Assembly (NCBI GenBank): GCA_041657425.1
Contig: JBBABY010000010.1
Location: forward strand, 1-32,000
DNA from: an archaeon
GTDB lineage: Archaea; Iainarchaeota; Iainarchaeia; Iainarchaeales; CSSED10-239
Direction of reading: 5' to 3'
Length of the DNA stretch: 32,000 nt
Below the pieces are notes generated by a model, which was not told the DNA's origin, did no database searches, and was given only the letters and a program-made list of their open reading frames with translations. Shown here piece after piece: positions 2,132 to 31,297 of the stretch (its first letter is position 1; each line of letters begins with the position of its first letter). The position numbers and the translations under genes are program-made.

Positions 2132-2607
2132 AATTTTTTATGAAATCAATAAAATCAATATTAGTTGCAGTAGTTAAAGAGCTAAATAAACAGAATATAG
2201 GTTATTATGCAACAGGCGGAACTGCACTTTATTTAAGAGGAATCATTGATGATACTCAAGATGTAGATTTATTTGTAAATTTTAAAGATTTAAAAAAATT
2301 AAGAGAAATTTATTCTAAATTTATAATTCCATCAGAGCATAAAGTAAAGAATTATCTTAATTTAAGAATAGAAGGAAGAGAAATAGAATTTATTGGTGTA
2401 AATTCAACTTGGGATAAGCAATCTTATGTTCAATTAAAGAATAGAGATTATGATATTATTAAATTAAATAAAACACACGTAAATATAAGTACTTTGAAGA
2501 ATTTAATAACTTGTTATGAATTTGCTTATAACCAATTTGGAAAAGAAAAACACTTAATGAGAATAGAATTAATTAAAAATTATTTATATAAACATAAAAA
2601 AGCTTAA
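2128..2607 (+). CDS. Nucleotidyltransferase-fold protein (minimal NTase-like), function unknown
   Basis: YYATGGTALYLRGIIDDTQDVDLFV resembles the G-x-RG ... D-x-D NTase signature. Its ATG overlaps the upstream stop (ATGA at 2128-2131). Confidence 0.5.
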   Translation: MKFFMKSIKSILVAVVKELNKQNIGYYATGGTALYLRGIIDDTQDVDLFVNFKDLKKLREIYSKFIIPSEHKVKNYLNLRIEGREIEFIGVNSTWDKQSYVQLKNRDYDIIKLNKTHVNISTLKNLITCYEFAYNQFGKEKHLMRIELIKNYLYKHKKA

Positions 2608-2676
2608 GAAAACATTTATATTCTCTTTTATCTATTGTATTATTATAAATTTATAAAATTAAAACGGTGATAATAG

Positions 2677-3027
2677 ATGATAGGAATAACAACAAGAACT
2701 AGTCCATATAGATTAGATAGTAAATCTAAAGAACCAATAGAGCTTTATTTAAAATTAACAAATAGTCCAATAAAGAGATTATTAAGCATAGATGTTACTT
2801 TAGATGAAGATTTAAGTTTTGATAAAATTAAACCAATTAATACTGATTATAAGAGATTAGGCGATTTTACTCCAGGACAAGCAAAAGAAGTTAAATATAT
2901 AATCTACCCTGCAGTTGGTGCAATTCCTGGACTTAAATCAGTAAAGGTAAGAATTGGAGAGCATAGTAAAGACTATAATTACATTGATAGTAAAACTGAA
3001 AGTACAATAAAAATTAATATGATTTGA
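2677..3027 (+). CDS. Hypothetical protein (116 aa)
   Basis: Clean ORF in the same orientation as its neighbours, with GGTGA upstream of the ATG. No motif recognised. Confidence 0.5.
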   Translation: MIGITTRTSPYRLDSKSKEPIELYLKLTNSPIKRLLSIDVTLDEDLSFDKIKPINTDYKRLGDFTPGQAKEVKYIIYPAVGAIPGLKSVKVRIGEHSKDYNYIDSKTESTIKINMI

Positions 3028-3031
3028 ATTT

Positions 3032-3298
3032 ATGACTCCAAATATTAAACCAAGACTTGCATTTAAGATTGCAAAAGAAAAAAGACGAGAAAAGGCATGT
3101 AAAGGACACGCAAATAAAAAAGCAATGGCTATTCAAATAGACCAACTAAGAATACAGATAAAAAGATTAACTTCTGAAAAGAATTTAAGTAAAAAACAAA
3201 TAGAAGAATTAAAACGAAATTTAGAAGAATTACAAAAAAGATACAATCAATTAGATGATGAGTCAGTAAATACAAGTGCACTTTATAGTAGATATTAA
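3032..3298 (+). CDS. Hypothetical basic coiled-coil protein (88 aa)
   Basis: Lys/Arg/Glu/Gln-rich heptad-like sequence (QIDQLRIQIKRLTSEKNLSKKQIEELKRNLEELQKRYNQL). Starts 4 nt after the previous gene. Confidence 0.45.
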   Translation: MTPNIKPRLAFKIAKEKRREKACKGHANKKAMAIQIDQLRIQIKRLTSEKNLSKKQIEELKRNLEELQKRYNQLDDESVNTSALYSRY

Positions 3299-3318
3299 TT
3301 ATCTTTATTTGATTTGTT

Positions 3319-4026
3319 ATGAATAAACAATTAAAACTAATTTTAGAGGATCTTAAGAAAAAAGGAGACTCCAAGAAAGCAATTGAACAGAAGAGATACC
3401 TTAAGAGTCCATATCAAATGTATGGAATTTGGGGAAAGGATCAAGATTCTGCAGTTAAGCAGTTTTATTTATTAAATAAGGAAATAGACAATAAAGAATT
3501 GTTTAAGATACTAGAAGATTTGTGGAAAAGTAAATGGCACACAGAGAAATCTTTTGCTATTGGTATTGCAACTTATTACACAGATCAATACACCGAGAAA
3601 GAATTATTGTTTTTTAAAAAATGGTTAGATGAATGTACTGGTTGGGACCACACAGATGGAATATCTGGATTTATTATTGCACGAATGGTTGTGGATAATT
3701 CTAAATTGAAAAAAGTCATCAATTCTTGGACAAAAGAGAATTGTATGTGGACAAGAAGGGCGAGTCTTATTAGTTATATAAGATCTTTAAGGAAAGACAA
3801 TAGAGATTTACAAGATGTTTTTAATAATATAAAACCATTAATGCATGAAAAGGAATTTTTTATAAGAAAAGCAATTGGCTGGGTATTAAGAGAAGCAAGT
3901 AAAAAATATTCAAAGGAAGTAATTGCTTTCGTTAAAGAAAATAAAGATGAACTTTCAAATCTTTCTAAAAGAGAAGCTCTAAAAACGATTTTATTAAAAA
4001 AAGAATTATCTAAGTATTTATCTTAG
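3319..4026 (+). CDS. DNA alkylation repair protein (AlkC/AlkD-like HEAT-repeat glycosylase family)
   Basis: Family hallmarks in order: EQKRYLKSPYQMYGI, LWKSKWHTEKSFAI, GWDHTDG, WTRRASLIS, FFIRKAIGWVLREASKKYSKEV, LSKREALK. Confidence 0.85.
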   Translation: MNKQLKLILEDLKKKGDSKKAIEQKRYLKSPYQMYGIWGKDQDSAVKQFYLLNKEIDNKELFKILEDLWKSKWHTEKSFAIGIATYYTDQYTEKELLFFKKWLDECTGWDHTDGISGFIIARMVVDNSKLKKVINSWTKENCMWTRRASLISYIRSLRKDNRDLQDVFNNIKPLMHEKEFFIRKAIGWVLREASKKYSKEVIAFVKENKDELSNLSKREALKTILLKKELSKYLS

Positions 4027-15894: not shown

Positions 15895-15920
15895 AATTAG
15901 TTACTATTGACTACAGGTGA
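15895..15920 (+). promoter_or_regulatory. Shared leader/operator box AATTAGTTACTATTGACTACAGGTGA upstream of the repeat-protein gene
   Basis: 23 of 26 nt are identical to 29641-29666 upstream of the SAM synthetase gene. It sits just downstream of a TATA-like ATATATATAATAAATA and includes the SD. Confidence 0.45.
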
Positions 15921-15925
15921 TATTT

Positions 15926-18220
15926 ATGAAGAAATTAAAAAAATCAGCAGTAAGTTTTAATAAAAAAGAAATAATGGATAAATTAAATAAACAGCTCAAT
16001 TTTCCAACTACTTTTGTTATTAGTCCAATTGATATATTCTTATTAAAAAAGAAAAAAATTGATATTAAAAATTATGCAAGAGACTTAAAGAAAGTAAATG
16101 CAAATCACACAATTTATCTTGGTATGAAATATAATATTACGGACTTAATGGACGCCGGATTTACCGATACTGAAATTAAGACGTTAGGTTTTACATTAAA
16201 TGAAAAGAAACCAGTTGTTAAAGTTGCAAAGAAACTAGTTGTTATAAAGAAAAAACCAGTTGTAATTAAGAAAAAACCAATCCTAAAAAAGGCAACTGCA
16301 AGTTTAAGCAAAAAAGAAATTGTTGATAAATTAAGTAAACAGCTTAATTCTCCAACCACTTTCTTAATCAGTCCAATAGATATCTCACTATTAAAGAAAA
16401 AGAAAATAAGCATTACAAGATATGCAAAAGACTTAAAAAAAGTAAAAGCAAATCACACAATTTATCTTGGAATGAAATATACAATTAAAGATTTAAAGAA
16501 TGCAGGATTTACAAATTTCGAAATTACAGAACTTGGGTTTAAAGCAGAAGAAAAGAAATCAGTTGTTAAAAAGAAAAAAGAAATTAAGAAAAAGCAATTA
16601 CCATTAATAGAACTTCTAAGAAAGAAAACTCCTGCAAGAAAATTACTTTCATTAGGTTATAACTATATAAAACTAAAACAAAGAAAATATACAGCAACTA
16701 AATTAAAAAAAATGAAATTCAGTTCTAAATATCTTTTTACGATTGGTTTTTCAGCAGCAGATTTACATAATGCAAAATATGCATTAGTGGAATTAAAGAA
16801 AGCAGGTTATTCTGCAAAGGAATTAAAAGCAATTGGCTATTTAGCTAAAGATTTATTAAAAGTAAAATATAGTGAAGATGTTGTCGCTTATGCACAGTAT
16901 CCCGCAAAGGAATTATATAAATTAGATTTCCCAGTTAAGAAATTAAAGATTGCAGGATATAAAGCAACTGAATTAATTGAAGCAGGATATACTTTAGAAG
17001 ATTTAAAGAAGGCATACACAATTAGAGAACTATTAGTTGCAGGATATACTCTTTTAGATTTAGTGGATAAAGAAAAAATAAATATACAGCAATTACTTGA
17101 TGAAGGCATAACTATTGCTGATCTTTTAAAAGAAGGATTTAGAATTAAAGAATTAACTCCAGTTGGCGTTACTGCTAAACAATTTAGAGAAGCAGGTGTA
17201 AGTTCAAGAGACATGTATAAAGTAGGATATTCTATAAGAGAACTAAAAGACGCAGGATATAAGTTAAAAGACTTATTTGATTTAAGAGATCTTTTAACAT
17301 TAAAAGAAAAGAAAGAAGAATTTAATTTAGAAGATTTAAGATATTTAAATTATTCTGCAAAAGAGTTACTTGGATTTGGGTATGCTCCTGCTGAGCTTTA
17401 TTTCTCTGGATATACCACTAAAGAATTATCAGATGCAGGACTTTCTTGTGTTCAGTTAATGGATGCTGGTTGTTCATTAAATGATATAAGATTAATCGGT
17501 TGTGGTTTAGCAGAATTTATTTCTAAAGGATATTTCGCAAAAGACTTAAAAAGAGCAGGATTTTCTGCAGTTGAGATTCATTTAGCAGGATATAGTTTAT
17601 ATGATTTAAGAGATGCAGAATTTAATGCAAAAGAATTACTTGGTATTGGATATTCAGCAAAACAATTTCATAATCTAGGATTTACTGCTAGAGAATTATA
17701 TTTTGCAGGATTTGGTTTACAAATAATAAAAGATGCAGGATATGGTGCTAAAGAACTTGCAGATTTAGATATTGATATAATTGAATTTGCAAATGCGGGA
17801 TATTCAGCAAAAGAAATGAGGGCTGCAAGTTACAGTGCTTATGATTTAAAGAAAGCATATCCAGCAAGAGAACTTAGACTTGCAGGTTTTGATGCTGCTT
17901 CTTTAAGGGATGCAGGGTACTCAGCAAAAGAATTACATGATGTTGGGTTCTTTCCAAGAGAATTATATTATGCAGGATATTCTGCAAAAGATGTTAATGG
18001 ACTAGGATATGGGCCAAGACAATTAAGAGTAATAAGATATACAGCAAAAGAATTAAAGCCAATAGGGTTTACTGCAAGAGAATTATATTCTGCAGGATAT
18101 AGTGCTGATCAATTAATCAAAGCAGGATATAGTTATAAGGACTTATCAGATCTTGGAGTAAGTCAAAGAAGACTACATAGACATCTTAGAATACACTCTA
18201 AAGGATATAATTTCTTTTAG
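15926..18220 (+). CDS. Large repeat protein: duplicated N-terminal module, Lys-rich linkers, then about 50 tandem decapeptide (aGYsakELkx) repeats
   Basis: Uninterrupted 767-codon frame. ATG 15926 with AGGTGA SD is preferred over GTG 15917. No signal peptide or TM segment seen. Confidence 0.75.
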   Translation: MKKLKKSAVSFNKKEIMDKLNKQLNFPTTFVISPIDIFLLKKKKIDIKNYARDLKKVNANHTIYLGMKYNITDLMDAGFTDTEIKTLGFTLNEKKPVVKVAKKLVVIKKKPVVIKKKPILKKATASLSKKEIVDKLSKQLNSPTTFLISPIDISLLKKKKISITRYAKDLKKVKANHTIYLGMKYTIKDLKNAGFTNFEITELGFKAEEKKSVVKKKKEIKKKQLPLIELLRKKTPARKLLSLGYNYIKLKQRKYTATKLKKMKFSSKYLFTIGFSAADLHNAKYALVELKKAGYSAKELKAIGYLAKDLLKVKYSEDVVAYAQYPAKELYKLDFPVKKLKIAGYKATELIEAGYTLEDLKKAYTIRELLVAGYTLLDLVDKEKINIQQLLDEGITIADLLKEGFRIKELTPVGVTAKQFREAGVSSRDMYKVGYSIRELKDAGYKLKDLFDLRDLLTLKEKKEEFNLEDLRYLNYSAKELLGFGYAPAELYFSGYTTKELSDAGLSCVQLMDAGCSLNDIRLIGCGLAEFISKGYFAKDLKRAGFSAVEIHLAGYSLYDLRDAEFNAKELLGIGYSAKQFHNLGFTARELYFAGFGLQIIKDAGYGAKELADLDIDIIEFANAGYSAKEMRAASYSAYDLKKAYPARELRLAGFDAASLRDAGYSAKELHDVGFFPRELYYAGYSAKDVNGLGYGPRQLRVIRYTAKELKPIGFTARELYSAGYSADQLIKAGYSYKDLSDLGVSQRRLHRHLRIHSKGYNFF
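15956..16540 (+). repeat. Two copies of an about 80-aa module, 351 nt (117 codons) apart, inside the repeat-protein gene
   Basis: KKEIMDKLNKQLNFPTTFVISPIDIFLLKKKKIDIKNYARDLKKVNANHTIYLGMKY... matches KKEIVDKLSKQLNSPTTFLISPIDISLLKKKKISITRYAKDLKKVKANHTIYLGMKY... The copies share an identical 23-nt run, gcaaatcacacaatttatcttgg. Confidence 0.85.
16637..18166 (+). repeat. 30-nt (10-codon) periodic coding repeat array, about 50 units
   Basis: Successive units include AGYSAKELKA, IGYLAKDLLK, AQYPAKELYK, AGYKATELIE, AGYTLEDLKK ... AGYSAKELHD, VGFFPRELYY, AGYSAKDVNG. GCAGGATAT recurs at the nucleotide level. Confidence 0.85.
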
Positions 18221-18671: not shown

Positions 18672-19373
18672 TTATTTTTTTTTAATTTTTTTAACTTCTT
18701 TTTTCTGTTTTGTTACAACTAGTTTTCCAGTTGCTAAGAATTCTTTCATACTAATAAGCCCGTATTTTGTGATTATCCAAGAACCAGTAAATATTGCTCC
18801 TGCCATTAATGGATTTAATCTTAAGAGTAATGAAGCTACGCCACCAGCAGTAGCTACTTGAATGTCTGGTCTTGAAAATAATTCCCCAATTTTTTCAAAG
18901 AATTCTTTTGTTTTACCAGTTTTAGGATTTATTTCTGCAGCTAGTTCTCCGTTTGTAAAAATTCTAACTCTTCCATCTTCTTCTGAAGAGATGATTGCTA
19001 GAACGTTTTTAGTTTCTGAAATTCCTCTTGCTGCAGAATGTCTTGTTCCATGTCCTTTAAGGATTGTAGTTTTCTTAACTTTTGCACCATAATCAACAAT
19101 GTACCCATCATTATCAACAACTATTGCTCCATCAAGTTCAAGTAAAGCGATTAAGAGGGTTTGTGTTTCTTTGTTGAAGATGCTTATTTTCTTACCAGAA
19201 AATAAATCAGGATATAGGCATTCGTATTTATCAGAGATATCCTTTTTAGTAATTATAAAAAAAGAACCTTTCTTTTTATTTGCCATGTCGTTAACCATTT
19301 GAACAACTACGGCTATTACTTTTTTATTTAAATTTGAATTGTGGTTTTTATTCATATTAATATATATATCCAT
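18672..19373 (-). CDS. Diadenylate cyclase (DAC/DisA_N domain; c-di-AMP synthase) with a hydrophobic C-terminal segment
   Basis: DAC hallmarks in order: LELDGAIVVDNDG, GHGTRHSAARGISE, LAIISSEEDGRVRIF. The C-terminal VATAGGVASLLLRLNPLMAGAIFTGSWII is hydrophobic. Confidence 0.85.
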   Translation of the reverse strand: MDIYINMNKNHNSNLNKKVIAVVVQMVNDMANKKKGSFFIITKKDISDKYECLYPDLFSGKKISIFNKETQTLLIALLELDGAIVVDNDGYIVDYGAKVKKTTILKGHGTRHSAARGISETKNVLAIISSEEDGRVRIFTNGELAAEINPKTGKTKEFFEKIGELFSRPDIQVATAGGVASLLLRLNPLMAGAIFTGSWIITKYGLISMKEFLATGKLVVTKQKKEVKKIKKK

Positions 19374-29373: not shown

Positions 29374-29386
29374 ATTGTCCAACAAT
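29374..29386. repeat. 13-bp palindromic motif ATTGTCCAACAAT, copy 2
   Basis: Lies 16 nt after the stop at 29358. Its last base (29386) is shared with the stop codon of the convergent RHH ORF. Confidence 0.5.
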
Positions 29387-29553
29387 TAATGTTTTTTATC
29401 AGGATTATGAAAGTATCCCATGTCTGTTAATTTAATTAATGTAAGTTGCTTAACAACATCTGCTCGAGAGCATCCAATTTTGTTAACTAACCCATCAATT
29501 ATCTTTATTTGTTCCTTTGAAAAGTAAGGACTCACTCTTGCTTCTGAGGTCAT
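29386..29553 (-). CDS. Ribbon-helix-helix (CopG/MetJ/Arc-type) DNA-binding protein, 55 aa, not in the ORF track
   Basis: Minus strand reads MTSEARVSPYFSKEQIKIIDGLVNKIGCSRADVVKQLTLIKLTDMGYFHNPDKKH*. It has a strand (RVSPYFS), helix, G/loop, helix pattern. GGAGA lies 11 nt upstream of the ATG. Confidence 0.6.
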   Translation of the reverse strand: MTSEARVSPYFSKEQIKIIDGLVNKIGCSRADVVKQLTLIKLTDMGYFHNPDKKH

Positions 29554-29573
29554 ATTCTGTCATTTCTCCTTTC

Positions 29574-29658
29574 TTAGTAACCGTGTGGCCACTATACAGT
29601 TACTAATGAGTGGAAGTATTTTTAAACATTTCTAAACACTAATTAGTTACTAATGAGT
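29574..29658. promoter_or_regulatory. Candidate operator array in the RHH/SAM-synthetase divergent intergenic region
   Basis: AGTTACTAATGAGT occurs twice as a direct repeat (29598-29611 and 29645-29658, 47 bp apart). An inverted half-site TTAGTAAC lies at 29574-29581. A TATA-like TTTTTAAA sits between the two boxes, and box 2 abuts the AGGAG SD. Confidence 0.5.
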
Positions 29659-29672
29659 ACAGGAGAAGAAAC

Positions 29673-30578
29673 ATGAAAACGAAAATAGAAGTAATTGAAA
29701 GAAAAGGAATTGGTCATCCAGATACGATTGCGGATAATTTGTCTGAAAAGTTATCGAAAAGATTATTAAAGGAATACGGAGCAATAAAACACTATAACGT
29801 AGATAAAACAATGGTGTGTGCAGGAGAGATTGAGAACGGAAAGTTTATAACAGAAGTAAGGATTGTTTTTGCTGGTCAATATACAAAAGTAAAAGATATT
29901 GATAAGATACTTGATTTAGTAGTTAAGGAAACTCTAAGTTTTGAGATAAAGAATGGATTGAAATATAAGATTTACAATTTCTTAAACCAAGGCAGTCCTG
30001 ATCTTAATGAAATTTTTTCTTGCAAAAAAGCTAATGATACAAGCTTTGCAGTCGGTTACCCAGAAACAGATAATGAAAGACTAGTAAAGTCTATTGGAAA
30101 CTATATAGATAGTCTTCACAAAACAGATAAGTACATAGGAACGGACAACAAAGTAATGTTTACTTTTGATGGCAAAGATAAAACAATCTATATTGCTCTT
30201 GCTTTCTTAGATAAATTTAAAAAAAAAGAAGAGTATTTTAAATATAAGAGAATACTTGAAGATAAGTTAAAACAAAAGTTTAAGTTAAAAAATTTATACA
30301 TTAATGTGGGAGACACAAAAGAAATGCATTTTATAACAAAGACAGGAACTTCTCTAGAGATGGGGGATAGTGGAGCAACTGGTAGAGGAAACAGAAGAAA
30401 TGGATTGATAACTCCAACTAAACCAATGACTTTAGAAGCCTACTATGGAAAAAATCCAATAACACACATTGGAAGAATATATCAAGATTTAGCAATTGAT
30501 ATGGCAAAGAAAAAGAATATCTTGCTATTAAACAAGATAGGTGGAGATATCAAAAAACCAATTATTTTAGAAATTTAA
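29673..30578 (+). CDS. mat: Archaeal-type S-adenosylmethionine synthetase (MAT), compact 301-aa form
   Basis: VIERKGIGHPDTIAD, ANDTSFAVGYPE, and TGTSLEMGDSGATGRGNRRNGLITPTKPMTLEAYYGKNPITHIGRIY match the archaeal MAT family signature blocks. Confidence 0.9.
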   Translation: MKTKIEVIERKGIGHPDTIADNLSEKLSKRLLKEYGAIKHYNVDKTMVCAGEIENGKFITEVRIVFAGQYTKVKDIDKILDLVVKETLSFEIKNGLKYKIYNFLNQGSPDLNEIFSCKKANDTSFAVGYPETDNERLVKSIGNYIDSLHKTDKYIGTDNKVMFTFDGKDKTIYIALAFLDKFKKKEEYFKYKRILEDKLKQKFKLKNLYINVGDTKEMHFITKTGTSLEMGDSGATGRGNRRNGLITPTKPMTLEAYYGKNPITHIGRIYQDLAIDMAKKKNILLLNKIGGDIKKPIILEI

Positions 30579-31297
30579 CATATCTTTTCACAAACAAAAT
30601 TTGTAAATTTAGAATTTACAATGTCAAAGGACATTTCATAAAAATGAAGTGTTCCATCATTCTTTTGTATGTTTTTAAAGATTATAAGGTTATCAGGGAA
30701 TAAAATTCCTTTTTTGTTTTTTTTGTAAAATTCAGTTTTATTTACAAATTGATAATCTCCTTCTCTGTTTTCTTTTATTAATTCTCCTTTTGGATTATCA
30801 ATCAAAATCACAAATTGAGTGAAATGGCTAAGTAATTCTCCATTTTCTTTGATTATAAAATTGATTACTGAAAAAATTTTTGCGTCTCCAGATAATCCTG
30901 TTTCTTCAAATAATTCTCTTTTTGCACAAGAAAGTATATTTTCTCCAAATTCTACTTTTGCACCAGGAAGTCCATAAAATCCATAATAAGGTTCTTTAGT
31001 TCTATGGTATAATAAATATTTTCCATTTTTTCTAACAACTAAAAGTGCAGCAACAAATGGTCTTTGTCTTTTTTTTCCAGTTTCTCCATCAAGTGATGAT
31101 TCTAAGGTTTTTCCTTTAGTTGTAAGTGCATATTTCTGATCTTTATCTTTCTTTACATATCCTTCTTCAATCAATTGATTTAAATGATATGTGAATTTAT
31201 TAGACGGTACTTTCTTATCCCAAAGATCACTAAATACTGTTTTTTTATTATGTATTAATATGCTTAAAATCTTTTCTCTAATTTCATTGTCTTTCAT
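30575..31297 (-). CDS. Winged-helix DNA-binding domain fused to a NUDIX hydrolase domain
   Basis: N-terminal KILSILIHNKKTVFSDLWDK...FTYHLNQLIEEGYVKK (wHTH). NUDIX box GAKVEFGENILSCAKRELFEETGL. Confidence 0.85.
   Translation of the reverse strand: MKDNEIREKILSILIHNKKTVFSDLWDKKVPSNKFTYHLNQLIEEGYVKKDKDQKYALTTKGKTLESSLDGETGKKRQRPFVAALLVVRKNGKYLLYHRTKEPYYGFYGLPGAKVEFGENILSCAKRELFEETGLSGDAKIFSVINFIIKENGELLSHFTQFVILIDNPKGELIKENREGDYQFVNKTEFYKKNKKGILFPDNLIIFKNIQKNDGTLHFYEMSFDIVNSKFTNFVCEKIC

Follow-up and report, generated by a model that had tools for sequence, protein, structure and literature searches.

A 55-codon gene under purifying selection lies divergent from a SAM synthetase gene

In a 32,000-nucleotide window of DNA from an archaeon of the lineage Iainarchaeota (positions 1 to 32,000 of contig JBBABY010000010.1, assembly GCA_041657425.1; "the window" denotes this whole stretch), a 55-codon open reading frame (ORF) on the minus strand lies divergent from mat, which encodes an S-adenosylmethionine (SAM) synthetase, or methionine adenosyltransferase (MAT). 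An initial annotation, made from the sequence of the window, had read the small ORF as an unannotated gene for a ribbon-helix-helix (RHH) repressor and had raised the idea that this repressor, acting through repeated boxes in the spacer between the two genes, controls mat in the way that MetJ controls metK in E. coli. We followed up this idea by comparative analysis of the small gene, of the boxes, and of the synthetase genes that accompany them. The features of the locus are the following, the scores in bits being those of a position weight matrix (PWM) described below.

29386..29553, minus strand: gene for an RHH-like protein of 55 aa (MTSEARVSPYFSKEQIKIIDGLVNKIGCSRADVVKQLTLIKLTDMGYFHNPDKKH), called from the ORF, its homologues, its substitution ratio and an AlphaFold (AF2) model
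29566..29569, minus strand: putative Shine-Dalgarno-like GGAG, 12 nt upstream of the RHH ATG, read from the sequence
29574..29581, no strand assigned: site C, a third palindromic core, GGTTACT on the minus strand (6/7 of AGTWACT), in inverted pairs I3 and I5
29590..29611, minus strand: predicted operator 1, tandem 11-bp units ACTCATTAGTA and ACTGTATAGTG (tandem score 20.8 bits; direct repeat D1)
29619..29626, no strand assigned: TATA-like octamer, TTTTTAAA on the plus strand and TTTAAAAA in the RHH direction, with conserved TTTAWAAA columns and a putative promoter role
29628..29637, plus strand: second A/T-rich element ATTTCTAAAC, a tandem copy of ATTTTTAAAC at 29618-29627 (direct repeat D2)
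29637..29659, no strand assigned: predicted operator 2, quasi-palindromic, tandem 11-bp units ACTCATTAGTA and ACTAATTAGTG on the minus strand (tandem scores 30.8 and 27.5 bits)
29662..29665, plus strand: Shine-Dalgarno GGAG of mat, 7 nt before the ATG, read from the sequence and conserved as CTCC on the opposite strand in the alignment
29673..30578, plus strand: mat, the presumed target, a compact archaeal-type methionine adenosyltransferase (SAM synthetase) of 301 aa (PF01941)

The divergent arrangement across a 119-bp spacer (29554-29672) that had initially been described was borne out both by the coordinates and by the match of the mat product to the Pfam family AdoMet_Synthase (PF01941, E=1.7e-70). 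The mat product aligns with residues 19-355 of the P. furiosus MAT (6s81) and keeps the GHPD, ANDTSF, GRGNR and GKNP motifs. Note that the NCBIfam methionine adenosyltransferase models match it below their equivalog cut-offs because it is ~100 aa shorter.

Homologues of the 55-aa protein were recovered from a search of 5.8 billion proteins as 33 clusters with lengths of 51-57 aa and 59-100% identity to the query, all labelled as hypothetical proteins and assigned to Candidatus Diapherotrites, to 'ainarchaeum' (Iainarchaeum) or to unclassified archaea. Sixteen columns of the family are invariant (R6, Y10, F11, S12, Q15, L22, G27, C28 and R30-L37). Across 35 distinct coding sequences the median ratio of nonsynonymous to synonymous substitution (dN/dS) is 0.083, with synonymous sites near saturation (median proportion of differing synonymous sites, pS, 0.73; the nonsynonymous counterpart, pN, 0.13), and of the five alternative frames three contain stops in 35/35 sequences and the other two in 33/35. 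The 55-aa ORF is a real gene under purifying selection. Thus, the clusters, the invariant columns and the low dN/dS uphold the earlier view that the small ORF encodes a protein; its description as unannotated holds in that no function has been assigned to it, but several public metagenome-assembled genomes (MAGs) do list it as a "hypothetical protein". An exhaustive profile search of 1.84 billion representatives gave only 16 matches at E<=1e-3, so that this family is narrow. The family is mainly restricted to Candidatus Iainarchaeota (Diapherotrites, DPANN), the group to which the named genomes with RHH loci belong. (We also found ORFs of 48 aa, at L074 1159-1305 and in P0038 and P0042, in which the C-terminal half of the RHH protein, GA[ST]RADVVKQLVLFKLTEMGYFDE, follows unrelated N-termini. 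Their context is different and higher in GC, and they could represent either remnants or a split variant.)

The pairing with SAM synthetase persists through a change of enzyme class

Loci carrying the RHH gene were taken from one genome per species (22 loci), from Joint Genome Institute (JGI) metagenomes (47 loci) and from exact look-ups (five more). Pairing was counted in those loci, the window included, that extend at least 300 nt upstream of the RHH gene (n=69). A SAM synthetase gene is divergent from the RHH gene in 63 of these, at a start-to-start distance of 96-219 nt: the enzyme is an archaeal-type MAT (PF01941, ~300 aa) in 21 loci and a bacterial-type MetK (PF00438/PF02772/PF02773) in 42, and the remaining six have no SAM synthetase gene in this position. 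When duplicates were removed, the synthetase was present in 41 of 44 distinct combinations. In particular, the loci closest to the window have the same ~300-aa archaeal-type MAT, and more distant loci have a MetK of ~385 aa that begins MKYLFSSESITEGHPDK and matches the three S-AdoMet_synt domains (E 1e-37 to 1e-69). All other neighbours of the RHH gene vary, and include a mechanosensitive channel, GNAT proteins, transporters and genes of unknown function.

In a neighbour-joining tree of the RHH proteins, the copies linked to archaeal-type MAT form one clade within the diversity of the MetK-linked copies, so that a single replacement of the enzyme, at a regulator and promoter that were retained, suffices to explain the distribution of the two classes. 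That the pairing is kept with either class of synthetase argues that the link is to the function of the enzyme. We regard a pairing that has lasted through an apparent swap of enzyme class as strong comparative evidence for a functional link. Conservation of the gene pair and of the boxes in related genomes had been proposed at the outset as a check, and both are conserved.

Several observations on the enzyme itself were made along the way. The MAG AMR_MDS_2622 contains two RHH-MAT pairs, L007 (DAOOON010000047.1) and L008 (DAOOON010000029.1), whose RHH proteins are 81% and 83%, and whose MAT proteins are 80% and 77%, identical to those of the window; these represent either a real duplication or a bin of mixed strains. 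The "mini" MAT of ~300 aa, which is ~100 aa shorter than characterised archaeal MATs, belongs to a clade with members of 47-58% identity in viral contigs and in glycan-biosynthesis operons (L075-L078; P0074, P0081, P0096, P0114). The viral contigs carry genes for phage sheath, D5 primase, terminase and portal proteins, and the glycan operons carry radical-SAM and methyltransferase genes. The Iainarchaeota MAT that replaced MetK may have come from such a mobile source. Downstream of mat in the window, convergent with it and overlapping its stop codon by 4 nt, a gene on the minus strand (30575-31297) encodes a 240-aa fusion of a winged-helix DNA-binding domain (DUF7347/HTH) to a NUDIX hydrolase.

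Tandem 11-bp units flank a TATA-like element

The boxes had initially been described as 14-nt direct repeats with an inverted half-site. The coordinates of both are exact, with AGTTACTAATGAGT at 29598-29611 and 29645-29658 and TTAGTAAC at 29574-29581, and allowing up to two mismatches the 14-mer has four matches in the window against 0.61 expected, a number reached in 0/100 shuffles. A repeat finder indicated, however, that the real repeat is 22 nt long (29590-29611 and 29637-29658, 86% identical and 47 nt apart) and that each copy consists of two tandem 11-bp units. Similarly, what had been taken for an inverted half-site is a third palindromic core (site C) that lies inside the predicted 5' leader of the RHH gene, in the 11-bp register of operator 1, and whose GT.AC columns are conserved in the alignment of spacers from loci with archaeal-type MAT (the aMAT class).

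The PWM for the 11-bp unit was derived from 30 distinct intergenic regions. It has the consensus RCTnATYAGTw (13.6 bits), with the units in tandem at exactly 11 bp, and the resulting array can be read as two overlapping palindromes, ACTnATnAGT and the junction core AGTWACT. The aMAT-class alignment is invariant at the TATA-like octamer and at three junction cores, those of operators 1 and 2 and of the third site; the operator and TATA columns are invariant even though synonymous sites are saturated. Scanning for tandem units detected pairs in the 32-kb window only at 29590-29611 and 29637-29659 (0/200 second-order Markov shuffles) and, in 369 kb of related loci, gave 126 tandem matches that all lie within 260 nt upstream of an RHH gene, results in which only the absence of matches elsewhere is informative. 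Thus, within the window and these loci, no tandem operators that would point to further members of a regulon were found. A lone core box, ATTAGTTACTATTGACT at 15896-15912, was considered as a regulon member and set aside, such a match being within chance expectation. (This box, which shares 14 identical nt with operator 1 of locus L001, is preceded by an A/T-rich stretch resembling a TATA box and followed by the Shine-Dalgarno sequence and ATG, at 15926, of a decapeptide-repeat gene whose 764-aa product matches PF25296 with E=2e-124.)

The elements of the spacer stand in a conserved order, namely operator 2, 10-12 nt, TTTAWAAA, 7-9 nt, operator 1, and the 7-9 nt between the TATA-like octamer and operator 1 is common to both MAT classes. 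Operator 2 is conserved in 14/14 distinct aMAT-class intergenic regions and in most MetK-class ones. In the window, the octamer lies midway between the operators and is flanked on both strands by purine-rich stretches that resemble the TFB recognition element (BRE). Operator 1 begins 7 nt past the octamer in the RHH direction, and operator 2 occupies the interval between the octamer and the mat Shine-Dalgarno sequence, over the expected start of mat transcription. With respect to the second A/T-rich element, TTTAGAAA is conserved at this position in several close relatives; one palindromic TATA element may serve both directions, or ATTTCTAAAC may act as a TATA box of its own for mat, or else as the BRE for transcription of the RHH gene, and the duplication of the A/T-rich decamer at 29618-29637 may mean that a bidirectional promoter has two TATA or BRE elements placed back to back.

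Where the RHH gene is linked to MetK, its ATG lies next to or inside operator 1, ~23 nt past the TATA octamer, a distance that would be as expected for a leaderless archaeal mRNA. In the clade of the window, ACTGTATAGTG replaces ACTGTATGGTA in operator 1, and the RHH gene appears to have acquired a leader of ~35 nt that contains the GGAG and the third core; close relatives have GGTGA or GGAG where the window has GGAG. The initial annotation had treated box 1 as an element upstream of the mat TATA box. Because the homologous operator abuts or contains the RHH ATG in the MetK-linked relatives, box 1 is likelier to be the operator of the RHH gene itself, situated between the TATA-like element and the RHH start.

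The position of box 1 upstream of the TATA-like element in the mat direction is nevertheless what would be seen if the RHH protein activated synthetase transcription or acted both ways, for example by binding operator 1 and recruiting TBP/TFB, and some RHH proteins, such as AmrZ, are reported both to activate and to repress (PMC3325190). Operator 2, however, is the better conserved and higher scoring of the two and lies downstream of the TATA-like element over the expected mat start, where archaeal repressors classically bind. On this argument from geometry alone, we consider an activating role unlikely.

The boxes accompany the RHH gene

RHH copies in contexts other than MAT keep the cassette of operator 2, TATA-like element and operator 1. 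The six exceptions to pairing include three mobile-element-like contexts, namely a type I restriction-modification (R-M) system, a CheR-tubulin fusion and an ArdC-like gene. A nearly identical ~95-bp cassette precedes the RHH gene in all three (L004 3900-4003, L040 1860-1995, L048 115-249), and the near-identity includes the first two codons of the divergent gene (GTG AAR); when the three divergent genes were tested for homology to one another, none was found. These findings suggest that the cassette is a portable promoter-regulator module or a recombination hotspot. At four RHH-less loci of the nearest MAT relatives (47-58% identical, in the glycan operons and viral contigs), no tandem boxes were found. 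In remote RHH subfamilies the strand reads RITPRFT or [VI]QVTFT instead of RVSPYFS, and other 11-bp tandem repeats lie just before the gene's own ATG, with TAGTGCYTAT or AGACACAnAAT present twice (L081 2480-2500; L082 2458-2479; L083 2397-2418). Because the boxes are kept in non-MAT contexts, are absent where there is no RHH gene and differ together with the strand residues, we conclude that they belong to the RHH protein and not to the enzyme.

These results bear on whether the boxes might instead be read by another factor, or act as an RNA leader or riboswitch-like element, with the small ORF as a bystander. The palindromic units could indeed form RNA hairpins. The boxes flank the TATA-like element, though, and for the most part fall beyond any leader that mat could have (~25 nt or less); they follow the RHH gene into non-MAT contexts, are missing from MAT loci that have no RHH gene, and change in sequence along with the RHH beta-strand residues in the remote subfamilies. 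Moreover, an Rfam scan of the window matched no family, so that no known riboswitch explains the conservation. We therefore hold such an explanation to be very improbable.

The mobile-element-like copies also speak for the RHH protein being an autoregulator only, that is, a portable "controller" cassette of mobile-element origin that has no effect on the synthetase gene. Consistent with this, the same cassette stands beside three unrelated divergent genes, and remote relatives lie upstream of R-M genes. Yet the second operator is found on the synthetase side of the TATA-like element in nearly all loci, operator 2 faces the divergent gene even in the mobile-element cassettes, and the pairing holds in 63/69 loci while other neighbours change and survives replacement of the enzyme class. 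Autoregulation alone thus seems to us a poor account of the locus, about as unlikely as activation.

Further observations concern the RHH copies outside the SAM synthetase context. At L004 4001-7020 an RHH paralogue immediately precedes type I hsdR...hsdS in the same orientation, and at L081 2501-5189 a remote relative is placed in the same way before the gene for a DNA_methylase/Eco57I protein of >832 aa; these R-M-linked RHH proteins might play the part of controller (C) proteins, though with an RHH fold. A divergent gene of unassigned function (256-262 aa, 57% identical) is conserved between L082 and L083. Taken together, the remote subfamilies form a natural specificity series that could serve for deriving a recognition code. 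At L040, the gene at 2267-3757 (minus strand) encodes a 496-aa protein of unusual architecture that joins a CheR-type SAM-dependent methyltransferase (E=2e-30) to a Tubulin/FtsZ GTPase (E=2e-13). Elsewhere in the window, a gene at 18672-19373 (minus strand) encodes a 233-aa protein with a DisA-type diadenylate cyclase (DAC) domain (E=2.5e-16), and the DPANN genome from which the window comes probably makes cyclic di-AMP.

A predicted RHH fold outside the curated families

From the family alignment, AlphaFold gave a single-chain model with a mean pLDDT (predicted local distance difference test) of 84, in which residues 6-12 are extended and helices span 13-26 and 30-44; this is the beta-alpha-alpha topology expected of an RHH protein. 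In the strand R6-V-S8-P-Y10-F-S12, R6, S8 and Y10 alternate with V, P and F as in RHH strands, and the RHH signature turn at the N-terminus of helix 2 is present as G27-C28-S29, invariant or nearly so. When the model was compared with the PDB by Foldseek, nearly all of the top 30 neighbours were RHH proteins, at TM (template modelling) scores of 0.5-0.73 and with E-values weighed below; they include Arc (1bdv), CopG (2cpg), TacA, AtaR, RHH-type MazE proteins, PutA and NikR, and further ORF56 (2k9i, 3ft7), CdbA and MatP. Remote family members gave matches below threshold, in the correct register, to ParG (E=0.0095) and RHH_1 (E=0.11).

Sequence comparisons placed the protein in none of the known families. 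The 55-aa sequence matched no Pfam family at E<=1, MetJ included, and a profile of 33 members found nothing significant in Pfam, NCBIfam or PDB. Comparison by hhalign with MetJ, Arc and CopG was not significant, the probability against E. coli MetJ being 0.8%. The family search for CopG, Arc or MetJ membership that had been suggested initially thus came back empty, and the 55-aa family belongs to no curated RHH family in Pfam, NCBIfam or PDB. (Matches to BurrH repeats were put down to coincidence, to the short motif GxSRADxVK. A likeness of VSPYFS to ISPYAEH near the N-terminus of MetJ was likewise judged coincidental; it lies outside the MetJ ribbon.) The modelled structure therefore favours the original call of an RHH protein, with good though not formal support, and the implied kinship with MetJ, Arc or CopG is not seen in the sequence.

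Many of the Foldseek neighbours are RHH antitoxins and family members resemble ParG weakly, as might be seen if the protein were an antitoxin or a ParG-like partition protein. Neither a toxin gene nor a gene for a ParA-type ATPase adjoins the RHH gene in any of ~80 loci, however, no ParA/ParF ATPase gene was found in the window or in the annotated loci, and the partner that is conserved, a housekeeping enzyme, is encoded on the opposite strand. On the grounds of gene context we rejected both the type II antitoxin and the ParG readings, which we judge to be the most improbable of those considered here.

A candidate circuit for control of SAM synthetase

We consider it likely, and well supported by comparative genomics, that the 55-aa protein is an autoregulated RHH repressor that also controls the divergent SAM synthetase promoter. 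By analogy with Arc, CopG and MetJ, dimers of the protein would bind side by side, one helical turn apart, on the tandem 11-bp units. Binding at operator 1, between the TATA-like element and the RHH start, would shut off the RHH promoter and so bring about autorepression, and binding at operator 2, between the same or the adjacent TATA-like element and the Shine-Dalgarno sequence and start of the synthetase gene, would block synthetase transcription. A compact bidirectional unit of ~75 bp would thereby let one small repressor set the level of SAM synthetase. We infer DNA binding, a repressing as opposed to an activating action, and the positions of the transcription starts. Characterised archaeal repressors that bind at such positions block recruitment of polymerase, and the match of the operator positions to this geometry is what leads us to favour repression.

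What the repressor might respond to is suggested by the pairing itself. Since the pairing is independent of enzyme class, the likeliest input would be a metabolite of the reaction (SAM, or S-adenosylhomocysteine, methionine or methylthioadenosine); that there is an input at all is argued by the consideration that a constitutive repressor of itself and of an essential enzyme makes little sense without one. Moreover, loci of the two enzyme classes, which are unrelated, show no change in the RHH protein, its conserved C-terminal EMGYF tail included. Sensing of the substrates or product that both enzymes share is therefore likelier than a direct partnership with the enzyme. Candidates for a ligand or coupling element are the EMGYF tail and the invariant Cys28. 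We put forward only tentatively, as a possibility that may well prove wrong, that the protein senses SAM or a close relative of it and provides a MetJ-like end-product feedback that arose independently of MetJ.

Several points weigh against the circuit as drawn. Minimal RHH proteins of ~55 aa, such as Arc or CopG, are normally without a ligand site. The PWM was trained on the same intergenic regions in which its matches were then found, and one MetK-class locus (L053) is without operator 2. With regard to the fold, the window protein has no significant match in sequence searches of Pfam, NCBIfam and PDB, all of the Foldseek E-values are at least 0.5 and none is significant, as is usual for a query of 55 residues, and DSSP calls no strand in the monomer model, as expected given that two subunits together build the RHH sheet. 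Finally, the remote RHH relatives that were tested are not paired with SAM synthetase; these subfamilies pair with other genes, which indicates that control of SAM synthetase would be a lineage-specific use of the protein and not a family-wide one.

Discussion

The system most readily compared with the one proposed here is that of MetJ. In E. coli, MetJ is an RHH protein of 105 aa with a defined SAM site whose dimers bind cooperatively, next to one another, on tandem palindromic boxes; its targets include metK, it is autoregulated from a divergent promoter region, and the logic is that of end-product feedback. The Iainarchaeota locus shares with MetJ acting on metK a predicted RHH protein, tandem boxes, a proposed divergent autoregulated promoter and a SAM synthetase as the target. 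It differs in that the protein has 55 and not 105 aa, with no detectable sequence relationship; in that the boxes are 11-bp RCTnATYAGTw units and not the 8-bp met box AGACGTCT, of which none was found in the intergenic sequence; in that the regulon seems to be the local pair only, as judged from the window and the 369 kb of loci; and in that the promoters are of the archaeal TATA/BRE type. By each mark of the MetJ family that could be tested (profile match, met boxes), the 55-aa protein falls outside it.

In size and operator plan the closest systems are Arc and Mnt of phage P22 and CopG of plasmid pMV158. These are proteins of 45-55 aa with the beta-alpha-alpha fold and negative autoregulation (here proposed), and they provide the best structural neighbours; Arc and CopG have no significant sequence similarity to the 55-aa protein. 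The Arc and CopG operators are bound by a dimer of dimers on 21-22 bp with half-sites one helical turn apart, a plan that the 22-bp, two-unit, one-turn spacing described here follows, whereas the tandem palindromic boxes follow the MetJ plan. Unlike these phage and plasmid circuits, which have neither a metabolic target nor a ligand, the present gene belongs to an archaeal chromosome and is paired with the gene for a housekeeping enzyme.

Small RHH proteins are known elsewhere in archaea. CdrS of haloarchaea and RHH proteins of viruses are described as small archaeal RHH transcription factors (PMC8406309, PMC5569661). Like CdrS, ORF56 (of pRN1) and SvtR (of SIRV1), the protein described here is proposed to act on a neighbouring gene or on its own promoter. 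The targets of those proteins are in cell division, plasmid copy number and viral genes, none being tied to SAM synthesis, and they have no sequence relationship to the 55-aa protein. The purpose of the proposed circuit, feedback control of SAM synthetase expression, is the one served by SAM riboswitches upstream of bacterial metK, but the proposed circuit relies on a protein and DNA operators instead of RNA; a riboswitch would not fit in so short a mat leader, and there is no Rfam match. Lastly, there is a likeness to the C proteins of R-M systems, which are small, autoregulated (here proposed) and encoded just upstream of the genes they control; RHH paralogues and remote relatives immediately precede R-M genes, of type I and type IIG. 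The C proteins have a helix-turn-helix fold and not an RHH fold, and the copy in the window has no R-M neighbour.

In the full-text literature we found neither an RHH-SAM synthetase pair nor an archaeal transcription factor for SAM synthetase, and the 55-aa family was found described in no paper (AmzR, 10.1101/2025.05.05.652248, is unrelated). We regard the protein as belonging to a well-known kind of repressor, of which it is a new variant at the level of the family, with a target and a lineage that are new as well.

To our knowledge, archaea have yielded very few transcription factors that are linked to a metabolite, and the DPANN archaea, with reduced genomes believed to hold little regulation, almost none. 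If the circuit operates as proposed, it would be the first candidate for transcriptional control of SAM synthesis in archaea. It is compact and directly testable, comprising a protein of 55 aa, a control region of 75 bp and a pair of operators whose sequence grammar is clear. That the regulator and its operators have apparently been kept while the class of enzyme was swapped amounts to a natural experiment, one that points to selection on regulated SAM synthesis and not on a particular synthetase gene. Were a ligand involved, the protein would be a convergent analogue of MetJ and a minimal scaffold for a SAM-responsive switch; and should it sense SAM or a close relative of it, archaeal SAM synthesis would have its first known transcription factor, which would also be the smallest SAM-responsive repressor known.

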